From positions 1,349,642 to 1,413,641 of the forward strand of contig JBLWFJ010000001.1 of the NCBI GenBank assembly GCA_048320885.1: DNA of 64,000 nucleotides, written 5' to 3'. The notes below the pieces were generated by a model. The model saw only the letters and a program-made list of their open reading frames with translations. It ran no database searches and had not been told where the DNA came from. This DNA is from Nannocystaceae bacterium ST9. GTDB lineage: Bacteria > Myxococcota_A > Polyangia > Nannocystales > Nannocystaceae. This document shows, one piece after another, positions 1,345 to 49,390 of this stretch; positions within the stretch are counted from its first letter, which is position 1; every line of letters starts with the position of its first letter. A program made the translations under genes and the position numbers.

Positions 1345-2633
1345 CGCGAGTCTCGAAGCGAGCGCAACTCTACCAGGCCCGGGCCGAACTCGACACGGAC
1401 CAGGTGGGGGTGCGCCCAGCCGAGCTCGATCGTCCGGGCCTTCGACCCGCTGAACACCTCGATCAACCAACGGCACCAGCCGGGGTGCGGAGCGTCGTTC
1501 CCCGAGCGCGCGGGCTCGAAGCGCACCCACATCCAAGGCAGCTTGTGACGTAGGCTCCACTGCTTGGCGAACTCCCGCATCTGCCGGGCCACCGCGCGCT
1601 GGTTGACGTCGCTGAGGTAGGCCGTGACGTAGGTGTTGTAGGCGATCACCGGGGCGACCGGGTGATCGGGCAGCGCCGATTGGAGGAAGTCGACGAGCTC
1701 GTCGGGCAGCTCCATCGTGCGCAGCTCGGCTGGGACCAGGCTGCGCTCGCGCACGTGGCGGCGATGGACCTCGATGCCCTCGCGCATCCGCTCGAGCCGA
1801 CGTCGCTGATCGCCCCAGACACAGGCTTCGAGGGTGACCTCGGCGTCCGGCTTGCCGAGATCGATCGGGTTGATGTCACCGCCGACCCGCCGCAGCACCT
1901 CGGGTCCGGCTCGCTCGGCCTCGCCGAATTCCTCGAGCGCCGGCTGGGGCCCGCTGCACGGGATCAAGAAGGGCTCGCGCTGACCGCCCTTGCGCGGGTC
2001 GAAGCCACGCCCGAGCCGCAGTCGCGCGCTGCGGCTCCACGCGAGTTCGAACGCACGCTGCTCGGCGTAGAGATTGAGCCCCGCCGCGCATCCGAGCTCG
2101 ACGAGGTACACGGCCTCCGCCCCAACGCACACGGCCGGCAACAACCAAGCGATCCCCCGCGAGGTCTCGTTGCTCTGCACCCGCCAGGTCTTGGCCCGCT
2201 GGAAGAGCTCGTCGCCGAGCCGCTCGGCGGCCCGCAAGAGTCGACCCGCGAACTCGGCATCGAAGGGATCGCGCGCGTCCGGCCCGTCGCCCTCCGGCAC
2301 GGTCGTGTAGTAGGGCCGCAGCTCGACCACGCGCGGGTCGTTTTGCAGCACGTACCAGTGCAGGCAGGCGTGGAGGCGCAAGGTCGGCTCGAGATCGTTG
2401 ATCCACGCGCCTTCGAGGCTGGGGTCGCCGACTTCGAGCAGATCGACCACGCGCTCGGCCGCACGCTGGACCGCCTCGGGGTTGCCGAGCTCGCGCCCTC
2501 GTGCGTCGGGATCGCTCAACCAGCCGACGACCTGCTCGAGCAGAGCGGCGGTCAACGGCGAATAGCCTCGCACGAACAACGCTTGGAGGCGAAGGCTCGA
2601 GCAGTGTCGGTCCCATGCCGGGTCGCGCGGCAT
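1341..2633 (-). CDS. DUF2332-family protein (function unknown)
   Basis: ORF 1341..2858 trimmed to ATG 2633 (MPRDPAWDRH...). Texts GYSPLTAALLEQV, VELGCAAGLNLY and GGDINPIDL...EACVWGDQRRRLERM match my recollection of DUF2332. Divergent from the aminotransferase across a 161-bp spacer. Confidence 0.65.
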   Translation of the reverse strand: MPRDPAWDRHCSSLRLQALFVRGYSPLTAALLEQVVGWLSDPDARGRELGNPEAVQRAAERVVDLLEVGDPSLEGAWINDLEPTLRLHACLHWYVLQNDPRVVELRPYYTTVPEGDGPDARDPFDAEFAGRLLRAAERLGDELFQRAKTWRVQSNETSRGIAWLLPAVCVGAEAVYLVELGCAAGLNLYAEQRAFELAWSRSARLRLGRGFDPRKGGQREPFLIPCSGPQPALEEFGEAERAGPEVLRRVGGDINPIDLGKPDAEVTLEACVWGDQRRRLERMREGIEVHRRHVRERSLVPAELRTMELPDELVDFLQSALPDHPVAPVIAYNTYVTAYLSDVNQRAVARQMREFAKQWSLRHKLPWMWVRFEPARSGNDAPHPGWCRWLIEVFSGSKARTIELGWAHPHLVRVEFGPGLVELRSLRDSR

Positions 2634-2794
2634 GTCGTCCCTGTACCACCAATGTCCCGCATTCCCAACTGCCGCGTCGTCCACGTGACCGACGACCACT
2701 GGTCTTTTCTGCACCGTGAATGCGATTCGAATAGCGCCTGACCCGCGGACGATGGCTTGCGGGGTGAGGGGAGTTCTGAAACCATCCCCCGACC

Positions 2795-3967
2795 GTGAAG
2801 GGCCGGTTGCGACCTGTCGACTATCTGGGCTGGGCGCTGACCGTCCCTGCCCAGGCACGTTTCGACCTCACGGGCAGCGGTGTCCCGGACACCTGCGGAC
2901 CGGGGTCGCTGGTCGGCCGCGAAGGGGTCGGCGAGGACGAGCCGCCCGGGTTGCCCGGTCCGGACTGGGCCCCCGATCTCGCGCTCGCCGATCTCTGCCG
3001 CCGCGATCATCGACCCGAGCTCCACGCCGACTTCCTGCGGGTGGTGGCCGCCCGCTACGGCGTCGCGCCGGAGTGCGTGGTCCCGACGCTGGGCGCCAGC
3101 CAAGCCATCCCGCACGTGCTCTTCGCCCTCGCCCGCCCTGGCGATCACGTGATCGTCGAGCGCCCGACCTACGAACCGCTGCACCGCGTCCCGGAAATGT
3201 TGGGGCTCTCGGTGTCGAGGCTCGAGCGAAAGATCGAGGAGGGTTGGAGTCCGCTCCCCGATCGACTCGCTCGCCTGCTCACGCCCAAGACCCGGGCCGT
3301 GATCCTGACCAACCTCCACAACCCCACGGGCGTCGCCATGCGGACCGAGACCCTGGTCGCGATTGGCGAGATGGCCGCGCGAGTCGGAGCCGCGGTGCTG
3401 GTCGACGAGGTCTACCTCGACTTCGCGTTCGACTCGTCGGGCGAGACCCAGCCCTGGCGACCCGCGGCGGTCGCGATCGACAACGGCGTGAGCTGGTCGT
3501 CGACCACCAAGTGCTTCGGGTTCTCGGCCTTGCGCGCCGGCTGGGTCGTCACCCGCGACCTCGAGCTCGCTCAGGCCCTGCGTGCGTCCGCGCTCTATTT
3601 TCATGTCGACACTCCCCTGGCCTCGCTCGCCTTGGCCACGCGTGTGATGCGACACGCACCCGAGTTGGCGGCCCGCGCCAACCGATCGATCGAGCGTGTG
3701 AGAACGGTCGTCGATCGCTGGATCGCGAGCGAGCCCCGTGTGACCTGGATCCCACCCTCCGCGGGCCAGACCGGCCTCGTCCGCCTGCCCGATCTCATGC
3801 AGGACCTCGTGTTCGCCCAGCACCTGCGCGAGCGCTACGACACCCAAGTCGTCCCCGGCGCAATGTTCGAAGCCCCCGGCGCCGTCCGGCTGAGCTTCAA
3901 CCTCCCGCTCGAGGTGCTCGAGCAAGCGCTCGCAAATTTCTCCGCCGCGCTGGATGACTTGGCATGA
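2795..3967 (+). CDS. PLP-dependent aminotransferase, class I/II
   Basis: GTG start, 390 aa. Motifs LTNLHNPTGV and VLVDEVYLDF, plus the PLP-lysine motif SSTTKCFG. Confidence 0.85.
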   Translation: MKGRLRPVDYLGWALTVPAQARFDLTGSGVPDTCGPGSLVGREGVGEDEPPGLPGPDWAPDLALADLCRRDHRPELHADFLRVVAARYGVAPECVVPTLGASQAIPHVLFALARPGDHVIVERPTYEPLHRVPEMLGLSVSRLERKIEEGWSPLPDRLARLLTPKTRAVILTNLHNPTGVAMRTETLVAIGEMAARVGAAVLVDEVYLDFAFDSSGETQPWRPAAVAIDNGVSWSSTTKCFGFSALRAGWVVTRDLELAQALRASALYFHVDTPLASLALATRVMRHAPELAARANRSIERVRTVVDRWIASEPRVTWIPPSAGQTGLVRLPDLMQDLVFAQHLRERYDTQVVPGAMFEAPGAVRLSFNLPLEVLEQALANFSAALDDLA

Positions 3968-3976
3968 GCTCCAATA

Positions 3977-4001
3977 GGGAGGCCGCGCCGCGCGGCCTCC
4001 C
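3977..4001 (+). terminator. GC-rich hairpin after the aminotransferase stop (outer end of the left arm)
   Basis: GGGAGGCCG-cgccgcg-CGGCCTCCC starts 10 nt after the TGA at 3965-3967. A second hairpin, CCTCAGCTCGC..GCGAGCTGAGG, follows. No U-tract. Confidence 0.4.
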
Positions 4002-4158
4002 CCTCAGCTCGCTCCGCGAGCTGAGGAACCCCCTCCATGCGACCCTGCCTACGTGGGGCATTGCGTGGTTCCCCTGCTCGGGCCGTCTCGCCCTCGCGGG
4101 GAATGGACAACGGGTTCGGCTTCGCCTCCCCTCGCTCCCTGCTTCGGCGAGATCCCTT

Positions 4159-4316
4159 CGCCGAAGCAGAACCAACCTGCGCCGAAGCAGAACCAACCTG
4201 CGCCGAAGCAGAACCAAACTGCGCCGAAGCAGAACCAGCCTGCGCCGAAGCAGAACCAAACTGCGCCGAAGCAGAACCAAACTGCGCCGAAGCAGAACCA
4301 AACTGCGCCGAAGCAA
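4159..4316. repeat. 21-bp tandem repeat, 7 full plus 1 partial copies
   Basis: Head-to-tail units CGCCGAAGCAGAACCA(A/G)(A/C)CTG start at 4159, 4180, 4201, 4222, 4243, 4264 and 4285, with a partial unit at 4306. There are no spacers, so this is not a CRISPR array. Confidence 0.9.
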
Positions 4317-4462
4317 ACGACCCTCCGCCGAAGCGAGCAAGGGGAGCGAAGCGAACCCGCTGTCCATTCCCCGCGAGGGCGAGACGGCCCGAGCAGGGGA
4401 ACCACGCAATACCCCAAGTAGGCAGAGCCGCGTGGAGGGGGTTCCTCGAGCGAAGCTCGAGG

Positions 4463-4485
4463 GGGAGGCCGGCGGACGGCCTCCC
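4463..4485 (-). terminator. GC-rich hairpin after the OMP gene stop (outer end of the right arm)
   Basis: GGGAGGCCG-gcggac-GGCCTCCC mirrors the hairpin at 3977-4001 and lies 11 nt downstream of the minus-strand stop at 4496. Confidence 0.4.
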
Positions 4486-4495
4486 TATTTCAGCC

Positions 4496-5239
4496 TCAGA
4501 ACCGCCACTCGACGATCAGCGGCAAGATCTGGATCGGCAGCGAGAACGCCGGATCCTTGTCGATCCCCTGGTTCGGCGGATGGTTGCGGTGGATCATCAG
4601 GCTCGGCCGAAATTCGACGTCGAGGCCGATCGCAAGCTCGCGCAGCAGGAAGAGCCGCAGGCCGACGCCGGCTTGGAAGCCGAGGGTCCAGCTGAGCTCG
4701 CGGCTCTGCTCGCGGGTGCCGTAGAGGTTCGGGTACTTCCAGAATCCGCCGGCCAGGCCGCCGCGGAAGATCGGGACCAGGAAGGGCGCCTTCTCGATGT
4801 AGAGCTTGTAGGTGTAGCCCAGCCAGACGTCGGCGCCGGCGACCGTGCCGGCGTCGCAGGTGCCGGTCTGGTTGTCCATGCCACACGAGGGCATGCGGAA
4901 GTCCTTGTACCCACCGCGATCGAAGAGCCCGGCGACGCCGATGTGAACCCAGTGCGCGCGGTGGATCTGGCGGTCGTACTGGATCCCGATCCGACCGCGC
5001 GGGACGTAGCCGACGATCCCGACCTGAACGGGCGCGAGCAGCGAGATCGCGTTGCCTCCGTACACGAAGTCCGGCAGCTTGAACCCGGTGTCCTGGCTCG
5101 AGGGGTTGGGCTTGCTGGCCCCGCTCGTCGGCGGCCCGGCGAGCGCCTCCGGGGCGAGCGCGAGCAGGATCATCGCGACGAGCAGAGGAAGGATCCGCTG
5201 GGCACGGGCTCGAAGTGGACGGGGGAGCGGACGTGACAT
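4496..5239 (-). CDS. outer-membrane beta-barrel protein
   Basis: Signal peptide MSRPLPRPLRARAQRILPLLVAMILLALAPEALA. Alternating hydrophobic beta-strand text. C-terminus ...LPLIVEWRF ends in an aromatic residue. Confidence 0.7.
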   Translation of the reverse strand: MSRPLPRPLRARAQRILPLLVAMILLALAPEALAGPPTSGASKPNPSSQDTGFKLPDFVYGGNAISLLAPVQVGIVGYVPRGRIGIQYDRQIHRAHWVHIGVAGLFDRGGYKDFRMPSCGMDNQTGTCDAGTVAGADVWLGYTYKLYIEKAPFLVPIFRGGLAGGFWKYPNLYGTREQSRELSWTLGFQAGVGLRLFLLRELAIGLDVEFRPSLMIHRNHPPNQGIDKDPAFSLPIQILPLIVEWRF

Positions 5240-5283: not shown

Positions 5284-5913
5284 GTGTACCCCCTGTTCCT
5301 GCTCGCCGTGCTCACGGTGCTCACGCTCGGACTGGCCCAGCGCCTCGGCCTGCTGGGCGACACGACCCTGATGATCGGGGCCTCGCTGCTCGGCGGCGTG
5401 ACCTTCCTTTCCGTTCACCCCGACCTCGACTGGATCGGCGAAGAACCGCAAGATCAGACCTGCGGACTCGAAGGCGAAGACGAGCTGGCGATCCGGGTCG
5501 AGCGAATTTCGGTCGATGACGCGCAGGCATTGCTGGGCGACGAGACCGTGACCTTCGTCGACGCTCGCAGCGGCGACGACTACGTGGCGGCGCACATCCC
5601 CGGCGCCGTGAGCCTGCCGGCCAGCGACGCGGCCGGGATCCTCGAGATCCAGTCGGTGCCGATCCTGCCCGAGGGGCAGGTCATCACCTACTGCAACGGT
5701 GGCGCCTGCGAGCAGTCCGAGTACCTCGGCGTGCTGCTGCGCGACCGCGAGGTCTGCAAGCAGGTCATGGTGCTCGAGGGCGGCTGGGCGGCGTGGGTCG
5801 AGGCCGCGGCGCCGACGGTCAGCGGCGAGGGCCAAGATGGATCGATCTCGGTCGACGTCGCGAACCCGAGCCCGAGCGAGCCCTGCGAGCCGAGCGAGGC
5901 GGTGCGCGGATGA
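5284..5913 (+). CDS. membrane-anchored rhodanese-domain protein
   Basis: GTG start. Two N-terminal hydrophobic helices, then rhodanese text ISVDDAQALLGDETVTFVDARSGDDYVAAHIPGAVSLP...ITYCNGGACEQS (active-site Cys loop). Confidence 0.8.
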   Translation: MYPLFLLAVLTVLTLGLAQRLGLLGDTTLMIGASLLGGVTFLSVHPDLDWIGEEPQDQTCGLEGEDELAIRVERISVDDAQALLGDETVTFVDARSGDDYVAAHIPGAVSLPASDAAGILEIQSVPILPEGQVITYCNGGACEQSEYLGVLLRDREVCKQVMVLEGGWAAWVEAAAPTVSGEGQDGSISVDVANPSPSEPCEPSEAVRG

Positions 5914-6374
5914 CCACGCTCGACACGACCTCGAAGGATCCCGAGTGGATGCGCGCGGCCGGCTGGATCGGTCGCTTGGTCGCGGGCGGCGTGTTCGTGT
6001 ACGCGGGCGGGCTCAAGCTGCTCGACCCGGCCGCGTTCGCGCAGGACATCGGCAACTATCAGGCCTTCCCCTGGTGGACCTGGAACCTCGCCGCCGCGGT
6101 CGTGCCGATCGCCGAGATCCTCGCCGGGCTCGCCCTGATCAGCGGCATCAAGCGGCGCGCCGGCGCGATCGTGCTCGGCTCGCTGACGGTCGCGTTCCTC
6201 GGCTTGATCGCCTCGGTGATCGTCCGCGGCATCGACTTGAACTGCGGCTGCTTCGGCGACGCGGCCGAGGCCAGCGCCGTCGGCTGGCCGCTCTTCTTCC
6301 GCGATCTCGCGCTGCTGGTCGCGATCGTCGCGGCCTACCTGCCGGCCGAGGCTCGCTCTTCGACCACGCCCTGA
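5910..6374 (+). CDS. MauE/DoxX-family redox-associated membrane protein
   Basis: ORF 5793..6374 trimmed to ATG 5910 (ATGA overlap with the rhodanese stop). Four TM helices and an LNCGCFG motif. The rhodanese-MauE pairing is common. Confidence 0.75.
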   Translation: MTTLDTTSKDPEWMRAAGWIGRLVAGGVFVYAGGLKLLDPAAFAQDIGNYQAFPWWTWNLAAAVVPIAEILAGLALISGIKRRAGAIVLGSLTVAFLGLIASVIVRGIDLNCGCFGDAAEASAVGWPLFFRDLALLVAIVAAYLPAEARSSTTP

Positions 6375-29164: not shown

Positions 29165-30514
29165 GTGGACGAGCTCGAGCCGCCGCTGACCAAGACCCAT
29201 CGCGCCGCGCTGGCCATCCACGCCGAAAAACGCCCGGGTCGACTGAAGCTGCGCTTGGTCGACGGGCCGAGCGGGTCGACCGACTTCGAGCTGACCAAGC
29301 CGACGATTCAGGTCGGCCGAAGCCCGATGGCCGACCTCGTGATCGACGAGCGCTCGATCAGCAAGATCCACTTCGAGCTGCGCCTGGCCGGGGGCGGCGT
29401 CGACCTGCGCGACCGCGAGAGCACCAACGGTTGCTGGCTGCAGGGTTGTCGAGTCTTCCACGCGCGCTTGCGGGTCGGCGACTCGTTCCGCGCCGGCGAC
29501 CTCCAGTTCATGATCGTCGGCGTCGACGAGGTCGACGTCGTGGTCACCTTGGCCCCGCGCTGCGGCGCGCTGCAAGGCGCGAGCGTGGTGATGCGCGAGC
29601 TGTTCGCGTCGATCGACGCGCTCTCGCTCGCGCCGCTCGACATCCTGATCCTCGGCGAGACCGGCACCGGCAAGGAGCTGACCGCCCGCACGCTTCATCA
29701 GCTCTCCGAGCGCCGATCCAAGCCCTTCGTGACCCTCGACTGCGGCGCGATCTCGGCCTCGCTCGCCGAGGGCACGCTCTTCGGGTTTCGCAAGGGCGCG
29801 TTCACGGGCGCCGACCATGATCAGCCGGGCGTGTTCGAGGAGGCCAACCGCGGGACCATCTTCCTCGACGAGATCGGCGAGCTCGTGCCCGAGCTGCAAG
29901 TCAAGCTGCTGCGAGTGCTCGAGCGACGCGAGGTCACCCGCATCGGCGAGCCGGCCAAGCCGCGAGCGCTCGACATCCGGGTCGTCGCGGCCACGCATCG
30001 CGACTTGCGGCGCGAGGTGGCCGAGGGCCGCTTCCGCGAGGATCTGTTCTATCGCTTGGCCCGCGGCCTGATCACGCTCCCACCCCTGCGCGAGCGTGGC
30101 GAGGACATCCTCATGCTCGCCGACGATTTCCTGGGCAAGCTGCGCGACGAGTTCGGCCGCGACGTCCGAATGAGCGCCGCGTGCAGGGACGCGATGCTGC
30201 GGCATCCCTGGCCCGGCAACGTCCGCGAGCTGCGGAACTGCATCGAGCAGGCCTTCCACATCAAGCGCTCGGGCGAGCTCGCGGCGAGCGACCTGCGACT
30301 CGGCACCCTGGCGTGGAAGAGCCAAGGCACGTCCGAGCTGGCCGACGCGACCAAGACCTACGCCGACGCCCACGTCGCGCTGGACAAGGTGTTCTTGGCC
30401 AAGGTGCTCGAGAGCACGAGCGGCAACCTCTCGGAGGCGGCCCGCCGACTCGGCCTCAGCCGCGACACGCTGCGAGTCAAGCTGAAGGCCGCTCGGCTCT
30501 ACCCCGACGGCTGA
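29165..30514 (+). CDS. FHA-domain sigma-54-dependent transcriptional activator
   Basis: GTG start. FHA-like [25 protein letters not shown]...STNG, then AAA+ [18 protein letters not shown] (GAFTGA loop), [18 protein letters not shown], and a C-terminal Fis-type [19 protein letters not shown]. Confidence 0.85.
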
Positions 30515-33183: not shown

Positions 33184-34521
33184 TCACTCGCCGGACTCGA
33201 AGCGCTTGAGCCGACGCCAGAGCGTCGAAGGGTTGATCCCGAGGATCTTCGCCGCCTGCTCGCGAGTCTCGCACTCGGCCAGTACGCCGAGGATGTGGCG
33301 CTGCTCGATCGCCGCGAGCGTGGTTCGACTGCCGAGCTCGGGCCCTCGCTCGACCCGGGCGCGCACGCGCTGCGAGAGCTGCTCGGCGGCGATGGTGGGT
33401 CCGCGCGCCAGGACCAGCGCGCGCTCCATCTCGTTGCGAAGCTCGCGGACGTTGCCCGGCCAGGCGTGGCCGCGCAGGGTCGCCTCGGCCTCGTGGCTCA
33501 GGCTCGGCGTCGGTCGATTCGCTCGCATCGCCGCGCGGGCCAGGAAGTGGCGGGCGAGCTCGGGAATGTCGGCCGCTCGCTCGCGCAGCGAAGGGACCTC
33601 GACCTCGATCACGTTGAGCCGGTAGAGCAGGTCGAGGCGCATGCGACCGGCGGCGACCTCGAGGTCGACGTCGCGGTTGGTCGCCGACACGATCCGCAGG
33701 TCGGCCCGCCGCGTCCGCGCCTCGCCGACCCGCTCGAACTCGAAGTCCTGGACGAAGCGCAGCAGCTTGGCCTGCGCGCCGCTGCCGATCTCGGCGATCT
33801 CGTCGAGGAACAAGGTCCCGCCCTCGGCCTCCTCGACGCGGCCGACCTGATCGCGGACCGCCCCGGTGAACGCCCCGCGGACATGACCGAAGAGCTCGCT
33901 GGTCAGCAGCTCGTCGCCGAGCGTCGGGCAGTTGATCGTGACCAGCGGACGCTCGGCTCGCGCGCTGCCGCGGTGAAGCAGGCGAGCGAGCACGCCCTTG
34001 CCGGTCCCGCTCTCGCCTCGCAGCAGCACGGGCGCGTCGCTGCTCGCGGCTTGCCGGATCGTATCGATCGCCGCCTGCATCGCGGCCGAGTGGGTGTGCA
34101 GCAGGACCTGGTCGGGATCGCCGGCCTCGGCTCGCCCGCCGACGTCGAGGACGTCGAGCTCGACGCGCGCTCGCTCGACGACCTCGCGGACCTGCGCCGG
34201 CGTGAAGGGCTTGGCCAGGTAGTCGCGCGCGCCTCGACGGATCGCCTCGACCGCGGTCGCGATGCTCGCGTAGGCCGTGATCAGCACGGCGTAGAGCTGC
34301 GGGTGATCGTGCACGAGCGAGGCGGTCAGCGCGATCCCGTCGTCGCAGCCGAGCCGGAGATCGACGAACGCGAGATCGAAGGCCTTGCTCTGCGCGGCCG
34401 CTTGCGCCTCGGCGGCACTGGCCGCGCGATGGACCGCGCAGCCGATCGCCTCAAGGCACATCCCGAGCGTCGCGCGAATGTTGGGCTCGTCGTCGACGAC
34501 CAGCACCCGAAGCCCGCTCAT
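33184..34521 (-). CDS. NtrC-family sigma-54-dependent response regulator
   Basis: REC (RVLVVDDEP...DLAFVDLRLG...AKPF), AAA+ ([36 protein letters not shown]) and a C-terminal HTH (AAKILGINPSTLWRRL). Confidence 0.85.
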   Translation of the reverse strand: MSGLRVLVVDDEPNIRATLGMCLEAIGCAVHRAASAAEAQAAAQSKAFDLAFVDLRLGCDDGIALTASLVHDHPQLYAVLITAYASIATAVEAIRRGARDYLAKPFTPAQVREVVERARVELDVLDVGGRAEAGDPDQVLLHTHSAAMQAAIDTIRQAASSDAPVLLRGESGTGKGVLARLLHRGSARAERPLVTINCPTLGDELLTSELFGHVRGAFTGAVRDQVGRVEEAEGGTLFLDEIAEIGSGAQAKLLRFVQDFEFERVGEARTRRADLRIVSATNRDVDLEVAAGRMRLDLLYRLNVIEVEVPSLRERAADIPELARHFLARAAMRANRPTPSLSHEAEATLRGHAWPGNVRELRNEMERALVLARGPTIAAEQLSQRVRARVERGPELGSRTTLAAIEQRHILGVLAECETREQAAKILGINPSTLWRRLKRFESGE

Positions 34522-42656: not shown

Positions 42657-43511
42657 TCACGCCGGTCGCAGCAGCGCGCCCTCGCGGACGAGCTCGCCTT
42701 CGCGGATCAGCTTGCGCAGGTGAGCCTCGACCGACATCGCGGCCAGCGGCCACGGAGCGCTCGGCGAGTCGGCGTAGGCCAGCCGGACCACCGCCGCGAA
42801 CTCGCGTGCACCCTGCTCGACGATCGCTGCGCGCACCTTCTGTTCGCGCGCCAACCTATGGGAGACATAGTATCGAGTGATGGCAATCGAATCGCGCAGC
42901 ACGGGTCCATGCGCCGGCACGAAGATCGGCGGCGCCCCGCGCTCGACCACGCTGCGCTCCGCCAGCGCCTGCATGCGCCGCAGCGAGTCGAGATAGAGGC
43001 CCATGTCGCCGTCGTCGCTCGGATCGACCAGGATCGTGCCTTCGCCCGCGACCAGATCGCCGACGTGCGCGACGTTGCTGGCCCGCTCCCACACGACCAG
43101 GTGGCCGGGCGCGTGCCCGGGCGTGTGCACGAGCTCGACTCGGTGACCGCCGCCGAGCTCGAGCGACCAGCCCTCGTCGACGTGCTCGTCGACCGCGAAG
43201 CCCAGCCGCGCCGCCGTGGCCGAATGGGCCCAGATCGGCACGCCAAGCCGCTCGCGCAGGCCTTCGGCATGGCCGACGTGATCGCCGTGATGATGCGTCA
43301 GCAAGATCCCGACCACCTCGCGGCCCTCGGCCTGAAGGCCGGTGATCAAGCCCGCCAGTCGAGCTTGCTCGTCCGGTCGCGGCGTCGCGGGCTCGACGAT
43401 CACCAGGCGCTCGTCGCCGAACACCACGGTGTTGGTGCTCGTCGCCGGCGGCAGGGTCGGAGTTCGCAGGGCCAGTGACCAGACCCCCTCGGCCAGCTTG
43501 GGCTCGTCCAC
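42657..43511 (-). CDS. MBL-fold metallo-hydrolase
   Basis: ILLTHHHGDHVGH, VHTPGHAPGHL, HVGDLV. A C-terminal helical domain follows. Confidence 0.8.
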   Translation of the reverse strand: MDEPKLAEGVWSLALRTPTLPPATSTNTVVFGDERLVIVEPATPRPDEQARLAGLITGLQAEGREVVGILLTHHHGDHVGHAEGLRERLGVPIWAHSATAARLGFAVDEHVDEGWSLELGGGHRVELVHTPGHAPGHLVVWERASNVAHVGDLVAGEGTILVDPSDDGDMGLYLDSLRRMQALAERSVVERGAPPIFVPAHGPVLRDSIAITRYYVSHRLAREQKVRAAIVEQGAREFAAVVRLAYADSPSAPWPLAAMSVEAHLRKLIREGELVREGALLRPA

Positions 43512-43669
43512 CTCCCGAGCATAGCCGCTCAGCTCACCTCTCGGGCAAGCTCACCCCTCGGGGGAATGTCGACGGTTGCCGTCACCATGCCGAAACGCGA
43601 AACTCGCTAGTCTTCGCGAAGCGTCGCAATTTCCTCGCGCTCGTTCCTCACACTGTCGAGTCCGCGCCC

Positions 43670-44503
43670 ATGGCCGAAGAACCCTACTTCAAGAAGAATC
43701 CCGGTGACCTGATCCGCAGCAAGGACTGGAACGACCTCCAGATCACGCTGCGCACCGAGGTCGTCACCGTCCAACAGACCGCCGCCGCGCTGCAAGCCGC
43801 GCTGCAGACCGTGCAGCAGGCCGCGACCGCGACCACGCAGCAGGTCACGGGTCTGCAGACCGCGGTCGCGAGCGCGGCCAAGGCCGCGCCCACGCAGGCG
43901 AAGGTGCTGGCGATCATGTCCAGCCACGGACCCTACTCGCAGACGGCCCTCGATCCCGGCAGCGAGTTCGACATCGCCCACCTGCGCTTCGGCATCCGCG
44001 TCGACTTCGACGAGCTGCCCGACCTCGACGCGATGGCGCTGCGCCGGCTCTGCGAGGTCCAGGTGCTGGTCCCCTACCCGCTCGGCGCCAACGTTCCGTT
44101 TCAGGCGCCCGACAGCTTCGGCTTGCAGTGGCTGACGGTCCGCGCGGGCGTGACCCGAGTCGGCAACAGCGTGGTATGGACCGCCAACCCCGTCGAGCTG
44201 TTCCGGCTCGGCGAATCCATCTTCGCCTCGATGGTCCGCAACTCGCACGACACTCGCTTCCAAGCCCGGCTGATCGTCCACGCCGACTTCATCGGCTCGA
44301 CCACCGAGGTCCCCGGTCGGATCACGCCGAACTTCGTCGCCGCCGATCAGCTCGGCGTCGGCGAGTTCGAAGTGCCCTTCCGCGTGACCGTGCCGGTCGC
44401 GACCTTCAACCCCTACACGTTCAGCTACCCCCACCCCTACTGGCCCTGGTCGTACACGAGCTACGTCGGCAACTTCCAAGGCATCGGCGGAGGTCTGCTC
44501 TAG
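43670..44503 (+). CDS. hypothetical protein with N-terminal Q/A/T coiled-coil-like segment
   Basis: ORF 43475..44503 trimmed to ATG 43670: MAEEPYFKKNPGDLIRSKDWNDLQITLRTEVVTVQQTAAALQAALQTVQQAATATTQQVTGLQTAV.... The aromatic-rich tail is PYTFSYPHPYWPWSYTSYVGNF. Confidence 0.55.
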   Translation: MAEEPYFKKNPGDLIRSKDWNDLQITLRTEVVTVQQTAAALQAALQTVQQAATATTQQVTGLQTAVASAAKAAPTQAKVLAIMSSHGPYSQTALDPGSEFDIAHLRFGIRVDFDELPDLDAMALRRLCEVQVLVPYPLGANVPFQAPDSFGLQWLTVRAGVTRVGNSVVWTANPVELFRLGESIFASMVRNSHDTRFQARLIVHADFIGSTTEVPGRITPNFVAADQLGVGEFEVPFRVTVPVATFNPYTFSYPHPYWPWSYTSYVGNFQGIGGGLL

Positions 44504-45399
44504 TGAAGGCCCTGTGGTCGCTGTGGACCAAGCCGGCCCTGCGACCCGGGAGCGCGCGCTGGCTGAGCGAGCGCCATCACCTGCTGGCCTGGGCGCTCTC
44601 GTTCGCCCGGGCCCGCGAGTTCTACCCTCGCACCGCGCTGATCACCGACAGCCTCGGCAAGCGCTGGTTGGTCGACGAGCTCGGCCTGCCCTTCGACGAG
44701 GTCTCGACCGAGCTCGACGCGCTGGCCGACGCCGACCCGCGCTTCTGGGCGCTCGGCAAGCTCTACGCCTACCGAGCGCAGACCGAGCCCTTCGTGCACC
44801 TCGACAACGACGTGTTCTTGTGGAAGCGCCTGCCCGCCGCGCTCGAGCAGGCCGCCGTGCTCGCGCAGAACCCCGAGTACTTCACGCCCGGCGATCCGAT
44901 GGCCTACTACCAGCCGACGATGCTGAGCTCGGCCTTGCTCGAGCACGGCGACGATCCTTGGTTGCCCGAGCCCTGGCGCTGGGCCGTCGAGCGACCCGGC
45001 GTGCACACGGCCGCGTGCTGCGGGATCTTCGGCGGCAACGATCATGCCTTCATCCGTCGCTACGCCGAGCAGGCGATCCGCATGGCCGAGCACCCCGGCA
45101 ACCGCTCGGGCTGGGCGGCGTTCGACAGCCACTTCGATCCCAACGTCCACTTCGAGCAGTACCTGCTCTCGGCCTGCCTCGATCACCAGCGCCACCACGG
45201 GACCGAGGTCGAGATCGCGTATCTCTTCCCTACCCACGACGCGCCCTTCGTCGCCGACGAGGCCGCGCGGGTCGGCTACACCCACTTGATCGGGAACGCC
45301 AAGCAGAACCCCGAGCTTATGGAGCGGCTCGATCGTCGCGTGCTCAGCGAGCACCCGCAGCTGCACGAGCGGGCCGCGGCCTGTTCGAAGCTGGCCTGA
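44503..45399 (+). CDS. hypothetical protein (DxD-containing, possibly glycosyltransferase-like)
   Basis: GTG 44503 overlaps the upstream TAG by 1 nt and is in frame with the tail of ORF 44128..45399. Texts FWALGKLYAYRAQTEPFVHLDNDVFLW and CCGIFGGND. No firm family call. Confidence 0.5.
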   Translation: MKALWSLWTKPALRPGSARWLSERHHLLAWALSFARAREFYPRTALITDSLGKRWLVDELGLPFDEVSTELDALADADPRFWALGKLYAYRAQTEPFVHLDNDVFLWKRLPAALEQAAVLAQNPEYFTPGDPMAYYQPTMLSSALLEHGDDPWLPEPWRWAVERPGVHTAACCGIFGGNDHAFIRRYAEQAIRMAEHPGNRSGWAAFDSHFDPNVHFEQYLLSACLDHQRHHGTEVEIAYLFPTHDAPFVADEAARVGYTHLIGNAKQNPELMERLDRRVLSEHPQLHERAAACSKLA

Positions 45400-45412: not shown

Positions 45413-45448
45413 GCGCCACGGCTTGCTCGCGAGAGCGAGCCATGGCGC
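45413..45448. other. imperfect hairpin shared by convergent transcripts (after sORF-1 and after the 44503..45399 gene)
   Basis: GCGCCA..GCTCGC-gaga-GCGAGC..TGGCGC. It shares the CCATGGC and GCTCGC cores with the hairpin at 45564-45602. Confidence 0.4.
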
Positions 45449-45461
45449 ACCGGACTCGGCC

Positions 45462-45515
45462 TCAGAGGCCGGACACGTTGAGGCCGCCTGCCTTCACCTT
45501 GGTCTTGGTCTTCAT
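45462..45515 (-). CDS. 17-aa sORF-1 (MKTKTKVKAGGLNVSGL)
   Basis: Preceded by AAAGGAGGAG, 7 nt upstream of the ATG. This is the strongest SD seen in the window. The N-terminus is shared with sORF-2. Confidence 0.4.
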   Translation of the reverse strand: MKTKTKVKAGGLNVSGL

Positions 45516-45563
45516 GGTTCGCTCCTCCTTTCTCGGCCGCGCGACGCGGCTCGACCGAAGTGA

Positions 45564-45602
45564 ACCACACCATGGCTCGCTCGCGCGAGGCCATGGTGTG
45601 GT
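45564..45602. other. strong hairpin between the two sORFs
   Basis: ACCACACCATGGC + TCGC / loop tcgc / GCGA + (g) + GCCATGGTGTGGT gives 13 + 4 bp. No U-tract. Confidence 0.55.
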
Positions 45603-45618
45603 GGAAGCGAGCCGGGCC

Positions 45619-45672
45619 TCACTGGCCGGTCGGGAGACCGGAGCCGGCCTTGATCTTGGTCTTGGTCTTCAT
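45619..45672 (-). CDS. 17-aa sORF-2 (MKTKTKIKAGSGLPTGQ)
   Basis: Starts 13 nt after the CYP51 stop. The first 10 codons are nearly identical to sORF-1 at the DNA level. SD is weak. Confidence 0.3.
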   Translation of the reverse strand: MKTKTKIKAGSGLPTGQ

Positions 45673-45685
45673 GCGGACGAGCCTA

Positions 45686-47092
45686 TCAAGCCGCGCGCAC
45701 GAAGGTCCGGCTCTTTCGCCGCCGATAGCGAAGCCGGCAAGGATGCCGCGGCCCGACCAGCAGACGCGAGTAGTCCGGCTCGTAGACGTCGCCCTCGACC
45801 AGCTCGAAGTCGAAGTTGCGCAGCACGTGGCTCCACAGCGCGCGCAGCTGCAGCTGGGCGAACACGATGCCCATGCAGCGGTGCCGGCCGGCGCCGAAGG
45901 GGATGAACGCCATCGGGTTGGCCTTGTCCTCGCTGCGCGGGGCCAGGAAGCGGGTCGGGTCGAAGCGGTGCGGCTCGGGGAACACCTCGGCGATGTAGTG
46001 CGAGACCGCGGGCGACGAGAAGATCATCGAGCCATGCGGGAAGTCGTAGCCGGCGTACTCGAAGTCGTTCATCACCTTGCGCATCATGATGATGATCGGC
46101 GGGTACATGCGCAGGACCTCCTTGATCGTCGCTTCGAGCTTGGGCATCGAGCGCAGATCGTCGAGGGTCAGGTCGTCGCGGTTGCCGAGCAGCTCGGCCT
46201 GCTCGGCGCGCAGCTCGGCCGCCCACTCGGGGTGCTGGGCGAGCAGGATGCCCGTCCACGAGAAGGTCACGCCGCTGGTGTGATGGCCGGCGAACATGAT
46301 CGTCAGCAGCAGGCCGGTGATCTCGTCTTCGCTGAGCGCTCGGCCGTCCTTGTAGTGGGCCTCCATCAGCGACTGCAACATGTCGTCGCCGACGTGGCCG
46401 CGAGCGCGGCGGTCGGCGACGATGCCCTTGATCAGCTCGACCAGGCGCACGCGGGCCTGATCGCGGCGGCGAAACGCCGGGACCAGCGGCAGGTCGGGGT
46501 TCAAGAACGCCAGCACGTTCAGCCCGCCCTCCATCTCCTGATAGAGCTTGGCGAACTCGCCCGAGAGCTTCTGGCGAAACTCGTTGCCGAGCAGCGAGCG
46601 GCTCGACGTGTAGATCGTCAGCTCGTTGCCGACGTCGTACATGTCGACGATCCCCGAGTCCTGCCAGCTCCCGAAGTACTGCTCGGCCTCCTCGATGAAG
46701 CCCTGCGCGTAGGTCCGCATCCGCTGCTCGCGGAGCGCCTCGTGGAAGAAGCCCAGCTGCTCGCGCATGATCGGCGGCGGCGCGTCGTAGGCGATGCCCT
46801 TGCCGAAGATCGGCGTCATCAGCCGGTACGACTCGGCCTGGCTGACGTCCTCGTCGCTCATGCGGAAGAACTTCTCTTGCGCCTTGGGTCCCGTCATCAC
46901 GATCGCGTCGGCGCCAGGCAGCGCCATCGTGAACAGGTCGCCGTAGAAGGCTCGCCCGCGCTCGAGCAGGCGGACCGGGTTGCTGCGCATCTCGAGCGCG
47001 TGGCCGAGCAGCGGAAGCCCGCCTTCGAGCCGCGGCGGCAGCTTGGCGGCCCCCTTCGAGGGTTGGGACGGAGCGCTGAAGAGCGTGACCAT
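45686..47092 (-). CDS. cyp51: cytochrome P450, CYP51-like sterol 14-alpha-demethylase
   Basis: Collinear by eye with M. tuberculosis CYP51: YRLMTPIFGKGIAYDA, ELTIYTSS, FAKLYQEME, FRRRDQAR, EITGLLLTIMFAGHHTSG, and the heme loop FIPFGAGRHRCMG. Ends ...CRLRYRRR. Confidence 0.85.
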   Translation of the reverse strand: MVTLFSAPSQPSKGAAKLPPRLEGGLPLLGHALEMRSNPVRLLERGRAFYGDLFTMALPGADAIVMTGPKAQEKFFRMSDEDVSQAESYRLMTPIFGKGIAYDAPPPIMREQLGFFHEALREQRMRTYAQGFIEEAEQYFGSWQDSGIVDMYDVGNELTIYTSSRSLLGNEFRQKLSGEFAKLYQEMEGGLNVLAFLNPDLPLVPAFRRRDQARVRLVELIKGIVADRRARGHVGDDMLQSLMEAHYKDGRALSEDEITGLLLTIMFAGHHTSGVTFSWTGILLAQHPEWAAELRAEQAELLGNRDDLTLDDLRSMPKLEATIKEVLRMYPPIIIMMRKVMNDFEYAGYDFPHGSMIFSSPAVSHYIAEVFPEPHRFDPTRFLAPRSEDKANPMAFIPFGAGRHRCMGIVFAQLQLRALWSHVLRNFDFELVEGDVYEPDYSRLLVGPRHPCRLRYRRRKSRTFVRAA

Positions 47093-47180: not shown

Positions 47181-48374
47181 TCACGGCTCGTCACAGCGCG
47201 GATCGAGCACCGGGACTGGTTGCACCTGCGTGATGCTCGGGTCCAGCCCAATCACGTCTTCGCCTCCATAGCCAAGACCGCCGCTCCAACAGTATACGGA
47301 ACCCGACTCCCCCAGAGCGCACGCGGAGCCATAACCAACGCTGATCGTCACGGCCGGCTCCGGCAAGGGAATGGGATCGACCACGAGCGGATCGAGAACA
47401 TCTTCGCCCCATGGATCGAGTGGCGTCGCTACCGGAGCGCCCCCCCAGCAACGGACCGAGCCATCGGCCGCGAGTAGGCACGCAGCACCTGTCCCCACGT
47501 CGACCTGCTCGACGCCTTGGTCGAGGGCGAGCGGCGGCAACGAAGCAGGTGTTTCATCGTCACCGATGTTACCTCCACCCGCCCCTCGACCCACCAATCG
47601 CTCGTCGCCCCAACAAGTGAAAGATCCCCCTTCCAGACGAGCGCATGCCGCCAACGTTCCAACGCTGACCTCGAGCGCGGCAGTGGGCATCTCGATCAGC
47701 TTGGGCGTCGATGACTCCAAGCTGCCGGGAACCCCCAGGATTCCACATGGTTCGTCCAGCTCACATTGTGGATCCGACCCCCAACAAGCCACTTGACCAT
47801 CGTCCAACACCGCACAAGCGCTATCGAAGCCGAGCGCCACTCCGATCACCGCCCCCGGTAACACCACCGTCGAGGGCTCGTCGTCGTCGCCCAGAGGTTC
47901 GTTGGTTTCTACGCCGACGATGCTCCGGTTTCCCCAACAGCGAAGCGTGCCGTCGTCCAACACCGCGCACGCACCGGAGTGTCCGACGGCGACGCTGGCG
48001 ACCGGTCGTCCGAAGTCGAAGCCGTCGATGACGGGGTCACCCTCGTACTTCGAGAACGGCTCCAGACAGCCGAGCCTGCCCTGTGCACGGCCGCACACGT
48101 CCAGTCCAACCGATACCGAGTCGAGCTCGAGATTCAGCCACTCGGCCATCCATGCCGGTTCGTCGTCACCGATGATCTCGCCATCGAGTTGCTCGCCCCA
48201 ACAGCGGACGCGTCCGGTCGACGCGCGAGCGCAGGTCCGGAGATCGGCGACGGCCGTCTCGACCTCGACGATCTCGACGCACTCCTGCGCGGGATCGAAG
48301 TCGTCGGGCGGCACGAGAGGCTCCGGCCCACATGCGGGGCACAGGAGCACGATGAATGGCAAGCGACGTGTCAC
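47181..48374 (-). CDS. RCC1-repeat (beta-propeller) secreted protein/lipoprotein
   Basis: GTG 48374 overlaps the upstream TGA (GTGA). N-terminus VTRRLPFIVLLCPACG. Recurrent units ...ACAVLDDG.(V/L)(A/R)CWG.... Confidence 0.75.
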   Translation of the reverse strand: MTRRLPFIVLLCPACGPEPLVPPDDFDPAQECVEIVEVETAVADLRTCARASTGRVRCWGEQLDGEIIGDDEPAWMAEWLNLELDSVSVGLDVCGRAQGRLGCLEPFSKYEGDPVIDGFDFGRPVASVAVGHSGACAVLDDGTLRCWGNRSIVGVETNEPLGDDDEPSTVVLPGAVIGVALGFDSACAVLDDGQVACWGSDPQCELDEPCGILGVPGSLESSTPKLIEMPTAALEVSVGTLAACARLEGGSFTCWGDERLVGRGAGGGNIGDDETPASLPPLALDQGVEQVDVGTGAACLLAADGSVRCWGGAPVATPLDPWGEDVLDPLVVDPIPLPEPAVTISVGYGSACALGESGSVYCWSGGLGYGGEDVIGLDPSITQVQPVPVLDPRCDEP

Positions 48375-49390
48375 TTGCACTTGTCGTCGTCGGCCACGCA
48401 GGCGAAGCGCACGTGCAGATGATCGTCGTGCTTGGGCTCGTGACGCACGATCCCGTGCTTGGCCCACTGCCCGTCGGGGTACTGAAACACGTCGACCAGC
48501 TTCTTCTTCGACCAGCCGCGCTTGCGGGCCTCGGCGTAGAGCCAGCCTTGCAGCTCGTAGTCGACGAACACCTTCTCGACCCCGCCCGGCTTGCCGGCGG
48601 TGGTCAGCAGGGCCTCGAGCAGCGCCCAGGTCGCGGCGGCGTCGAAGCTCGACTTGGTCGCGACCACGAACTCCTGCGGGTACTCGGCGGGCAGCTCGCG
48701 ATAGAAGAGCCCGAGGTCGATGTCGCGGCCCGACTGGTGCGAGGCGTGGCCCGAGAGCGCGCCGCCGTCCTCGTCGGACAGGTCGCCGATCGCCAGGCGA
48801 TGGGCCTTGGGGAAGCGCTCGTGCACGGCCGCGATCGCGTTGAGCGTGTGGTCGATCAGGTGGGCGGCGGCGTAGGTCCGCTCGACCCGTCGCCGGTAGT
48901 ACTGGCTCGAGCGCGGCAGTCGAGTCGGCTTGCGCAAGTAGCCATGATCGGGCCGGCCGATGCTCTGCCCGGCGATCGCTCGGATCGTCCGCTCACTCGA
49001 GCCCGGCAAGCGCAGCGTCTGGCCAACGCGGATCAGGCTGCCCTCGATGTCGTTGAGCTCGCGCAGCTCGTCGACGCTGGTCGCGTGGCGCTCGGCGATG
49101 CTGGCCAAGGTGTCGCCCGACTTGACCACGTACTCGCGCGAGCTCGCCCCGCCTCCGCCCTCGCAGCTCGACACGTCGAGCTCGCGCCCGACCACGAGCG
49201 GCTCGTCGGGCTCGAGCTCGTTGGCCTCGCGCAGGCTGCTGATCGAGCAGCCGTGCTCCTGCGCCAGGTCCCAGAGCGTGTCGCCCGGCTGAACCACGAC
49301 CGTGCGGCTCGCCCCCCGAGCGGGCTCGATCCCGACCGCCAGCGACAGCCAGCAGGCGCTCAGGATGCAAATCGGGCGAGACCAGCGCAT
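48371..49390 (-). CDS. LysM x2 plus MepA-like (peptidase M74) murein endopeptidase
   Basis: ORF trimmed to ATG 49390 (MRWSRPICILSACWLSLAVG). LysM texts VVQPGDTLWDLAQEHG and YVVKSGDTLASIAERH. Catalytic texts SGHASHQSGRDIDL and HDDHLHVRF. Confidence 0.8.
   Translation of the reverse strand: MRWSRPICILSACWLSLAVGIEPARGASRTVVVQPGDTLWDLAQEHGCSISSLREANELEPDEPLVVGRELDVSSCEGGGGASSREYVVKSGDTLASIAERHATSVDELRELNDIEGSLIRVGQTLRLPGSSERTIRAIAGQSIGRPDHGYLRKPTRLPRSSQYYRRRVERTYAAAHLIDHTLNAIAAVHERFPKAHRLAIGDLSDEDGGALSGHASHQSGRDIDLGLFYRELPAEYPQEFVVATKSSFDAAATWALLEALLTTAGKPGGVEKVFVDYELQGWLYAEARKRGWSKKKLVDVFQYPDGQWAKHGIVRHEPKHDDHLHVRFACVADDDKCK

Follow-up and report, generated by a model that had tools for sequence, protein, structure and literature searches.

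Several described systems come close to the short peptide genes examined here. Double-glycine leader peptides, which include class II bacteriocins, the ComC/CSP pheromones and NHLP/Nif11 precursors such as prochlorosins, have leaders of 15 to 30 amino acids with conserved hydrophobic positions (about −4, −7, −12 and −15) that end in GG, GA or GS directly before the mature peptide, and are exported by C39-peptidase ABC transporters with an accessory HlyD protein. In Anabaena, the 13- to 17-amino-acid morphogen peptide PatS is paired with HetC, a C39-type ABC exporter. Biarylitides and cittilins derive from minimal precursors cross-linked at aromatic residues by a dedicated P450, and selfish short elements such as the Rickettsia palindromic elements can reside inside coding genes. 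The locus examined here, within a 64,000-nucleotide stretch of the Nannocystaceae bacterium ST9 genome (contig JBLWFJ010000001.1; hereafter the window), carries two 17-codon small open reading frames (sORFs) next to a P450 gene. They belong to a family of very short peptides that we could not find described or annotated, which shares some features with each of these systems.

The duplicated sORF-hairpin unit

The initial annotation, which reported two minus-strand sORFs each followed by a hairpin, was confirmed. sORF1 (45672 to 45619), encoding MKTKTKIKAGSGLPTGQ, has its ATG at 45672 and its TGA at 45621 to 45619, and sORF2 (45515 to 45462), encoding MKTKTKVKAGGLNVSGL, has its ATG at 45515 and its TGA at 45464 to 45462; both encode 17 amino acids plus a stop. 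The shared 26-nt start matched only these two sites in the 64 kb, even with three mismatches allowed, and none is expected from 100 shuffles. The duplication is in tandem with a period of roughly 157 nt and covers more than the reading frame, as units 45700 to 45516 and 45560 to 45380 align over about 170 nt at 75% identity, including the hairpins. Hairpin 1 (45562 to 45604, minus strand) has 13-nt perfect arms at 45564 to 45576 and 45590 to 45602 plus inner pairs, and hairpin 2 (45413 to 45448, minus strand) has 16-nt arms at 45413 to 45428 and 45433 to 45448 that are 88% complementary. The 296-nt region folds at −150 kcal/mol compared with −123 kcal/mol for shuffled sequences (z = −5.1), and the 70 nt after each stop fold at −40.1 and −44.3 kcal/mol, against −23.0 and −29.0 kcal/mol for shuffles. 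Neither hairpin is followed by a T-run, and a consensus scan for Rho-independent terminators found no sites, although its rules may be too strict for a genome of 69% GC. A search of Rfam 15 returned only two chance-level hits (19.7 against a gathering score of 90 bits, and 17.9 against 45 bits).

Some details required correction. The Shine-Dalgarno (SD) sequence of sORF2, AAAGGAGGAG (45531 to 45522), is separated from the ATG by 6 nt rather than the 7 nt originally given, whereas sORF1 has no SD motif at all. The same GAAAGGAGGAG-N5/6-ATG layout was seen at a Nannocystis radixulma locus (L007; sORF MKTKTKIKAGGGITAI) and a Bradymonadales locus (L010). No sigma-70, sigma-54 or ECF-type promoter was found in front of either window sORF.

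sORF1 begins 13 nt after the stop codon (45688 to 45686) of a CYP51-type cytochrome P450 gene (45686 to 47092, minus strand), a sterol 14-demethylase homologue whose product is 78% identical to the Enhygromyxa salina lanosterol 14-alpha-demethylase homologue. Downstream lies a convergent plus-strand DUF6734 gene (44500 to 45399, start uncertain), and the pair is therefore located in a convergent intergenic gap. Hairpin 2 lies 14 nt beyond the stop of the DUF6734 gene, so it could act on both strands. The association with CYP51 implied by the initial annotation was not supported. Four orthologous cyp51 loci (81 to 93% identical) were retrieved and none had the sORFs, the genes downstream differing in each; the window pair sits at a synteny break. 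Neither DUF6734 nor a neighboring 342-amino-acid protein was found in any family locus. tblastn searches of the window with C39-ABC, HlyD, ADOP, kinase, ECF sigma factor, LanM and S8 peptidase seeds identified only two distant sigma-54 activators, 11 to 15 kb away.

A peptide family with a shared N-terminal module

The window peptides belong to a widespread family with the N-terminal module M-K-[TI]-K-T-x-[VIL]-K-A-G followed by a variable tail, with a modal length of 16 amino acids. sORF1 has a KAG-S junction and the tail SGLPTGQ, while sORF2 has a KAG-G junction and the tail GLNVSGL; its KAGGLN start resembles the first unit of multi-unit family proteins (KAGGLNxNHNQT...). A degenerate nucleotide pattern with free third positions identified 22 genome loci across five phyla, where about 0.03 would be expected by chance (estimated from the information content of the pattern and 596 Gb searched). 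A slightly wider pattern identified at least 120 metagenome loci but none in 2.9 million viral contigs, which does not support a phage origin. Together these gave 281 distinct peptides in 320 instances, often in arrays of two to eight. Carriers are soil and sediment bacteria of the Myxococcota, Acidobacteriota, Chloroflexota, Planctomycetota and some Pseudomonadota.

Conservation is at the level of the peptide, the criterion that had been set beforehand for a genuine coding sequence. Third codon positions vary freely across genomes of 41 to 76% GC, and all synonymous codons for Lys, Thr, Ala and Gly are used in the leader. An SD-like motif precedes 305 of the 320 sORFs, compared with 15.5% of control ATGs. 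The tail varies between families of copies but is conserved within each tail class, and tail classes (YIGETEKN, IIVVC, LNPQPLPP and xAVWGS) recur across loci with synonymous-only differences. The 70 nt downstream of family sORFs are more structured than shuffled sequences (Wilcoxon P = 1.5e−9), and both window copies are among the strongest, but only 23% of family sORFs have a clearly stable downstream hairpin and the hairpin sequences are not conserved.

Recurrent neighbors were regulators and exporters. Among 71 loci of at least 4 kb, 26 have a Ser/Thr kinase, 12 an ECF sigma factor and 14 a sigma-54 activator, with 36 carrying at least one of these, counts that stand without a background rate for kinase adjacency in phyla that are rich in kinases. 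Near-consensus sigma-54 promoters (TGGCAT-N5-TTGCA) lie 46 to 51 nt upstream of the sORFs in loci that carry FHA-GAF sigma-54 activators. Where an ECF sigma factor (TIGR02999) and a Ser/Thr kinase sit divergently 60 to 100 nt away, a conserved motif, GTTAGCCGTTT-N9/10-TTTACGAA, is found upstream of the first sORF. C39-ABC genes are present in 12 and HlyD genes in 13 of the 71 loci, in the order sORFs, HlyD, C39-ABC, and Bryobacterales loci carry an ADOP permease instead; overall, an exporter was seen within 5 kb in 21 (about 30%) of the 71. The C39-ABC exporters form one clade sharing a nearly invariant C39 N-terminus with the catalytic Cys (DCGPA motif) across Gammaproteobacteria, Polyangiaceae, Anaerolineae and soil metagenomes. 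Neighbor clustering found only kinases, sigma factors, activators and exporters; no modifying enzyme recurs, with LanM found in 2 of 135 loci, next to a peptide without Cys.

NCBIfam and Pfam scans of 16 longer members and of 74 members found nothing apart from one Hcp hit, and all database entries for the family are "hypothetical." Full-text literature searches with family peptide strings and topic terms returned nothing relevant, although sequences shown only in figures would be missed. AlphaFold2 modelling of the multi-unit proteins with a 63-sequence alignment gave a pLDDT of 55, a pTM of 0.12 and no secondary structure, which does not support a folded beta-hairpin scaffold.

The Hcp hit led to a striking and so far unexplained arrangement. 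At L010 (contig JAFGEP010000106.1), an hcp gene, encoding a type VI secretion tube protein, is interrupted at many positions, at codon boundaries, by inserts of 47 to 98 nt that consist of a stop codon, SD, ATG and leader, leaving separately translated pieces that each carry the leader. No terminal repeats, target duplications or palindromic ends were seen at the junctions. The possibility that most family tails are Hcp fragments was examined with a local Hcp profile and shuffled controls, but only 9 of 133 tails, from three loci, were supported, and concatenated tails of six other arrays hit nothing.

Possible function and alternative explanations

The interpretation offered by the initial annotation was partly supported. 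Of its two readings, genuine small peptides of a RiPP-like kind are supported as far as translation and selection go, though "RiPP-like" holds only for the layout of conserved leader and variable tail, and a 3′-UTR element that happens to contain an ORF is not supported. We consider it most likely, with moderate confidence, that the sORFs are translated genes for signal-induced, exported peptides. In this view, expression would be switched on by dedicated signalling modules, either a Ser/Thr kinase acting through an adjacent ECF sigma factor or an FHA-GAF sigma-54 activator. The N-terminal module would serve as a minimal export and processing leader ending in A-G(-G/S), and where the partner genes are present, the C39-peptidase ABC transporter with its HlyD adaptor would cleave and export the peptide, releasing the tail as a secreted signal or bacteriocin-like peptide. 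The hairpin after each sORF would end or stabilize a very short, abundant transcript. The window pair would be a tandemly duplicated orphan copy, inserted in a variable gap after cyp51 and possibly transcribed by read-through from it, in which copy 2 has a strong ribosome-binding site and copy 1 has lost its own, which would fit decay. The analysis establishes that the family exists and is under peptide-level selection, that its gene neighborhoods recur and that the promoter motifs are present; leader removal, the cleavage site, export and extracellular function are inferred, and expression and export are unproven for the two window copies, which have no kinase, ECF sigma factor, C39-ABC, HlyD or ADOP gene in the window.

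It remains possible, although less likely, that the peptides are genuine but act inside the cell, as small cationic outputs or feedback elements of the adjacent regulatory modules that are neither cleaved nor exported. Regulators are the commonest neighbors, most loci including the window show no exporter, and the two conserved Thr residues of the leader sit next to Ser/Thr kinases and FHA domains. However, a single C39-ABC/HlyD clade travels with the sORFs across phyla in an operon-like order, a hypervariable tail on a constant head is typical of exported peptides, and a regulator next to its target is expected in any case. A selfish or recombination-spread cassette that seeds sORFs wherever it lands, with the window pair as a nonfunctional relic of insertion and local duplication, is somewhat less likely again. 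The L010 hcp gene, the absence of the pair from the closest cyp51 loci, the missing SD of sORF1 and the lack of partner genes would fit, and part of the family's spread could be cassette-driven rather than selected for each tail. Peptide-level conservation with free third positions is not expected for an element selected as DNA, though, tail classes are under purifying selection, and arrays have dedicated promoters and regulators.

The remaining alternatives are very unlikely. A purely RNA element, in which two terminator or stabilizer hairpins mark the cyp51 3′ end and the ORFs are incidental, would suit the strength of both hairpins and their position at a convergent gene end, but it is contradicted by the cross-phylum conservation of the reading frame and is not favored by the absence of hairpin conservation, an Rfam match or a T-run. 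The notion that the peptides are substrates of the adjacent P450, or leader peptides attenuating a downstream operon, rests on adjacency and on a Lys/Thr-rich start that superficially recalls amino-acid attenuators; no gene follows on the same strand, and no P450 recurs near the family.

A more speculative and unlikely reading is that the constant part is a portable cassette that could be installed at codon boundaries inside other genes, turning them into arrays of separately translated peptides with the same export tag. At L010, two copies of hcp have been cut this way into at least ten in-frame leader-tagged pieces that together cover most of the protein. If directed or selected, this would be a natural system for producing and exporting fragment libraries of a protein, which might serve as decoys or signals related to type VI secretion, and the tail diversity of the family, including the window tails, would then come from such captures.

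Gene callers skip ORFs of 14 to 30 codons, and a family with hundreds of members has therefore gone unannotated. If these are exported peptides driven by Ser/Thr-kinase, ECF-sigma and sigma-54 circuits, they would represent a widespread peptide signalling or antagonism system in Gram-negative soil bacteria, in which peptide communication is poorly documented. They would also give a concrete output for the many orphan ECF sigma factors linked to kinases and for the FHA-type sigma-54 activators, the targets of which are, to our knowledge, largely unknown. The family is directly testable with synthetic peptides, one conserved protease domain and cultured carriers, and the hcp gene points to an unusual way of generating new small genes.

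Comparison with described systems

As in double-glycine leader peptides, the family has several tandem precursor genes with a constant N-terminal leader and hypervariable tails. The putative leader ends in small residues (A-G-G or A-G-S in the window copies), and in part of the loci, though not in most and not in the window, the genes are linked to a C39-ABC with an intact catalytic Cys and a HlyD adaptor. The leader is only 10 to 11 amino acids long, however, is Lys/Thr-rich, has a single conserved hydrophobic position and lacks the LSxxELxxIxGG-type pattern, and tails can be as short as 2 to 6 amino acids. Only A-G is invariant family-wide. The next residue is Gly in 31% of peptides in exporter loci and 20% elsewhere, and otherwise I, L, S, T, P or Y, so that GG is not required and the cleavage site is uncertain. 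The NHLM bacteriocin export models (TIGR03796/TIGR03797) are the top hit for the transporter of one family locus (L009) and among the top hits for that of another (L023), but at 141 to 169 bits against cut-offs of 853 and 709.

PatS and HetC similarly involve an ultrashort gene product in a Gram-negative bacterium, whose C-terminal few residues would be the active part, paired with a peptidase-ABC exporter; there is no sequence similarity, PatS is a single gene rather than an array and its regulation is different, so the resemblance is one of functional analogy only. Biarylitides and cittilins share with the window a very small ORF next to a P450 gene, but the P450 here is a housekeeping-type CYP51 whose orthologues lack the sORFs, and the window tails contain no Tyr, Trp or His to cross-link. 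Like the Rickettsia palindromic elements, the L010 cassettes are short and sit inside a protein-coding gene; they differ in that they are not read through in frame but break the gene into separately translated pieces, and are conserved as peptide rather than as DNA.

The tandem sORF pair and its genomic position

Two 17-codon ORFs on the minus strand of the region spanning 45413-45672, MKTKTKIKAGSGLPTGQ (45672-45619) and MKTKTKVKAGGLNVSGL (45515-45462), were identified as described in the initial annotation, and that observation held. Their shared 26-nt start occurred only at these two sites in the 64-kb window, even when three mismatches were allowed, and none would be expected from shuffled sequence. 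The repeat is a duplication of a whole unit, ∼157 nt from start to start, and the two units align over ∼170 nt at 75% identity, including the hairpins that follow each stop codon. Hairpin 1 has a perfect 13-bp stem (45564-45576/45590-45602), hairpin 2 has 16-nt arms (45413-45428/45433-45448), and the region folds far better than shuffled sequences (z = -5.1). Small corrections were required. The strong AAAGGAGGAG site of sORF2 is separated from its start codon by a 6-nt spacer rather than the 7 nt first proposed, sORF1 has no ribosome-binding site, and neither hairpin is followed by a T-run.

The upstream gene (45686-47092, minus strand) encodes a cytochrome P450 whose named relatives are sterol or lanosterol 14-demethylases of Enhygromyxa and Pseudenhygromyxa (76 to 78% identity), and the source is therefore a Nannocystaceae-like myxobacterium. 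The next gene downstream, encoding a DUF6734 protein, is convergent (plus strand, ending at 45399), and the pair therefore fills a convergent intergenic gap. To assess whether the sORFs are a feature of CYP51 loci, DNA surrounding the four closest P450 homologues (93, 92, 91, and 81% identity) was examined, and none carried such an sORF after the P450 gene or anywhere within its 7-kb locus. The genes downstream of the P450 gene differed in all four. In the most syntenic of these, locus L001, a different 221-aa gene lies between the P450 gene and a gene encoding a metallo-beta-lactamase-fold protein, whereas the window carries a 342-aa gene of unknown function, the DUF6734 gene, and the sORF pair in that position. 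Comparison with L001 placed synteny breaks on both sides of cyp51 (43475-45399 and 47181-48467), and an RCC1-repeat gene lies between the LysM/M74 peptidase gene and the P450 gene in the window but not in L001 to L003. Thus, the pair sits in a variable spot and is not tied to sterol biosynthesis.

A widespread family of short coding sequences

One genome per bacterial species was scanned with the back-translated start, ATGAARACNAARACNAARRTNAARGCNGG, in which all third codon positions were left free, and 22 loci were identified, compared with ∼0.03 chance matches estimated from the information content of the pattern and 596 Gb of sequence. According to their record titles, these derive from Myxococcota (Nannocystis radixulma, Polyangiaceae, Bradymonadales, and "Deltaproteobacteria" metagenome-assembled genomes [MAGs]), Acidobacteriota (Bryobacterales, Terriglobia, and Thermoanaerobaculia), Anaerolineae, Planctomycetota, and gammaproteobacterial MAGs. 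Every hit is an ORF of 15 to 42 codons that starts MKTKTK[IV]KAG and then diverges completely, and a relaxed peptide motif revealed further copies beside them in arrays of up to eight. A slightly wider pattern identified at least 120 metagenome contigs, mostly from soil and peat, but none in 2.9 million viral contigs. In total, 281 distinct peptides were found in 320 instances, with a modal length of 16 aa.

A profile search of the protein database identified 415 further entries of 38 to 74 aa, all annotated only as hypothetical and none with a Pfam domain. In these multi-unit relatives (proteins P0121 to P0240, for example, P0121, P0125, and P0134; loci L027 to L029), the head is repeated two or three times and the units are joined by a conserved linker, such that KAG is followed by mostly four variable residues (G[LIV]xx), NHNQTxARGL, and the next KVKTxVKAG. 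The last unit ends in tails of recurring classes (PPTIRD, IVMPD, LLPAV, and IIVVC). Structure prediction of a three-unit member gave no confident fold (pLDDT 55), which fits a processed precursor better than a folded domain, although this is weak evidence. Some sORF tails (L037:940 [minus strand], L071:1325 [minus strand], L054:216-1155 [plus strand], L055, L006, and L098) are Cys and Gly rich (PTCNSCRG, VCPGGCNGRS, PRDCGGGGGGG...) or carry a Gly/Cys stretch followed by a hydrophobic segment (GGGGCNSCGCGGGGLLIGIVVAVGVGIFL), and these may be a chemically distinct subclass.

Several features indicate that these are coding genes under selection. In the ten leader codons all synonymous codons are used, for example, four Ala, four Gly, four Thr, and both Lys codons, while the amino acids stay the same, in carrier loci ranging from 41 to 76% GC. 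As the retrieval pattern fixes the leader residues of the seed hits, their conservation is partly by construction; however, the extra copies in arrays, the Shine-Dalgarno (SD) sites, and the tails provide independent evidence. An SD-like motif at -18 to -4 was present for 305 of 320 sORFs, against 15.5% of other ATGs in the same DNA. The tails fall into recurring classes whose copies in different loci differ only synonymously; YIGETEKN uses TAC/TAT, GGC/GGA, ACC/ACG/ACA, GAG/GAA, and AAC/AAT, and IIVVC, LNPQPLPP, and xAVWGS behave in the same way. The reading frame therefore passes the comparison of synonymous and nonsynonymous substitutions that had been set beforehand as a test. The hairpins are not conserved in sequence, and although downstream structure is enriched overall (P = 1.5e-9), it is clear in only about a quarter of copies.

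One family member (L069) reached the Pfam gathering score for the type VI secretion tube protein Hcp, and two others picked out Hcp structures in the PDB, at the homologous region, as their second-best and best match, but only at an E value of ∼1. The tails of the first array in locus L010 (Bradymonadales MAG contig JAFGEP010000106.1), joined in genomic order, hit the Hcp model across a tail junction, whereas in reverse order they did not. A full-database search with the L010 40-mer identified an intact 167-aa Hcp that is 90% identical over the tail (L150:173-676), and comparison of its gene with L010 showed that two copies of hcp (L010:2272-3015 and L010:4821-5672) are cut into at least ten separately translatable pieces by inserts of 47 to 98 nt consisting of a stop codon, an SD site, ATG, and nine leader codons. 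In array 1, hcp codons 7-29, 34-58, 59-72, 110-138, and 139-159 follow each other in order, separated by inserts of 59, 47, 59, and 88 nt, and at these mapped junctions each stop codon is placed directly after an hcp codon and the next hcp codon follows the leader in frame. The second array, 2 kb away, holds further pieces (codons 46-56, 78-87, 96-105, 106-118, and 132-144) in scrambled order. A local Hcp profile with shuffled controls supported Hcp origin for 9 of 133 longer tails (seven from L010, one from L112, and one from L069), while other arrays hold paralogous tails whose concatenations matched nothing; this is therefore a special case and not the rule. Whether through a directed mechanism, selection for Hcp fragments, or an accident, it shows that the head with its ribosome-binding site can be placed in front of foreign coding sequence, which suggests one route by which new tails arise.

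Neighboring genes and candidate promoters

All ORFs within 5 kb of the sORFs were clustered and named using Pfam and NCBIfam, and two recurrent groups emerged. The first comprises regulators. Of 71 loci of at least 4 kb, 26 carry Ser/Thr protein kinases with TPR or WD40 tails, 12 carry an ECF sigma factor of the TIGR02999/PF07638 type, 14 carry FHA-GAF sigma-54 activators, and 36 have at least one of these. The ECF sigma factor typically sits 60 to 100 nt away, divergent from the first sORF, with the kinase next to it. These counts stand without a background rate for kinase adjacency, and the close, divergent arrangement and the shared promoter motifs are the stronger argument. The promoters fit the regulators. 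Near-consensus sigma-54 promoters (TGGCAT-N5-TTGCA) lie 46 to 51 nt before the sORF start codons (L014:2529-2544, L015, L016, L019, L020, L022, and L026), and most of these loci carry an FHA-GAF sigma-54 activator. A conserved promoter-like motif, GTTAGCCGTTT-N9/10-TTTACGAA (or TTCCGAA), was found upstream of the first sORF of each array in L018 (5040-5090), L024 (5700-5760), L031, L039, L061, L109, and L115. It occurs only where a TIGR02999-type ECF sigma factor and a Ser/Thr kinase lie divergently next to the array, and is a candidate target promoter for this group of sigma factors.

The second group comprises exporters, with a C39-peptidase ABC transporter present in 12 and a HlyD adaptor in 13 of the 71 loci. 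In L009, L023, L013, and L028 the order is sORFs, HlyD, and C39-ABC, followed in some by a second ABC protein. The transporters (L009:158-2788, L023:2311-4893, L013, L028, L030, L038, L042, L053, L091, L116, L123, L136, L142, and L144) form one clade spanning loci assigned to different phyla, in which the C39 N-terminus is nearly invariant (PEVVQTSAMDCGPAALKCLLEGFGIPVSYGRLREACQTDVDGTSID) and carries the catalytic Cys; their N-terminal 45 residues are almost invariant across phyla. The NHLP-bacteriocin exporter models are among their best NCBIfam matches, but the scores are far below cutoff, and they appear to be a distinct, unnamed exporter clade. Five Bryobacterales loci have an ADOP duplicated permease instead. 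No modifying enzyme recurs among the neighbors. LanM appears in two loci only, and in the one examined, L012, a 42-aa two-unit member (5824-5949, minus strand) that has no Cys lies upstream of a class II lanthipeptide synthetase gene (DUF4135 plus LanC-like; 1678-5022, minus strand), and this member may be a neighbor by chance or use a different chemistry.

The window itself holds no kinase, ECF sigma factor, C39-ABC, HlyD, or ADOP partner gene and none of the promoter motifs at the sORFs, and the two copies are orphans. Two sigma-54 activator genes (∼29570-30442, plus strand, and ∼33364-34092, minus strand; 45 to 49% identical to the AAA+ core of the Bryobacterales activator) lie 11 to 15 kb from the sORFs, but as no sigma-54 promoter was seen at the sORFs, a link is doubtful.

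Proposed mechanism and comparison with known systems

The comparisons establish that the window sORFs belong to a conserved peptide family that is, on this sequence evidence, translated, that the family has dedicated promoters and regulators, and that in part of the loci it has a dedicated peptidase-exporter; it is an inference that the 10-residue head is a minimal export and processing leader ending in A-G and that the C39 transporter cleaves and exports the tail. In this view, the window copies would then read G (KAGG) and S (KAGS), both acceptable double-glycine-type junctions. However, Gly follows A-G in only 31% of peptides in exporter loci, which argues against a strict GG rule, and cleavage, if it happens, is probably set by the invariant A-G or differs between subfamilies. 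The orphan copies could be transcribed from cyp51, because sORF1 starts 13 nt after its stop codon, and the peptides would have to use partners encoded elsewhere in the genome. The missing SD site of sORF1 may mean that it is decaying or that it depends on coupling to cyp51 translation. The hairpins most simply end or stabilize the short transcript, and hairpin 2 could also terminate the convergent DUF6734 gene. That the two sORFs are genuine family members under peptide-level selection can be held with high confidence, whereas it is about as likely as not that the peptides are exported and leader processed. The interpretation in the initial annotation, which offered either genuine small peptides, possibly RiPP-like precursors or regulatory peptides, or a duplicated 3′-untranslated element that happens to contain an ORF, is thus supported only in part.

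The main alternative is that the peptides act inside the cell as part of the kinase and sigma factor circuits, given that regulators are more frequent neighbors than exporters. The second alternative is a cassette that spreads by itself and leaves functionless orphans, and although this fits the variable insertion site and the lost SD site of sORF1, it does not fit the peptide-level conservation or the conserved tail classes. Readings in which the functional element is RNA only, the peptides are substrates of the P450, or the sORFs are attenuators are contradicted.

No match to the family was found in Pfam, NCBIfam, or Rfam, the source annotations state only hypothetical, and full-text literature searches likewise returned no match. 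In how it probably works, the family is closest to double-glycine leader peptides with peptidase-ABC exporters, but it fails the defining leader architecture of these, and its transporters fall outside the curated NHLP-exporter models. It appears to be a previously undescribed micropeptide family with a minimal leader, unusual regulators, and a very wide distribution in soil phyla.
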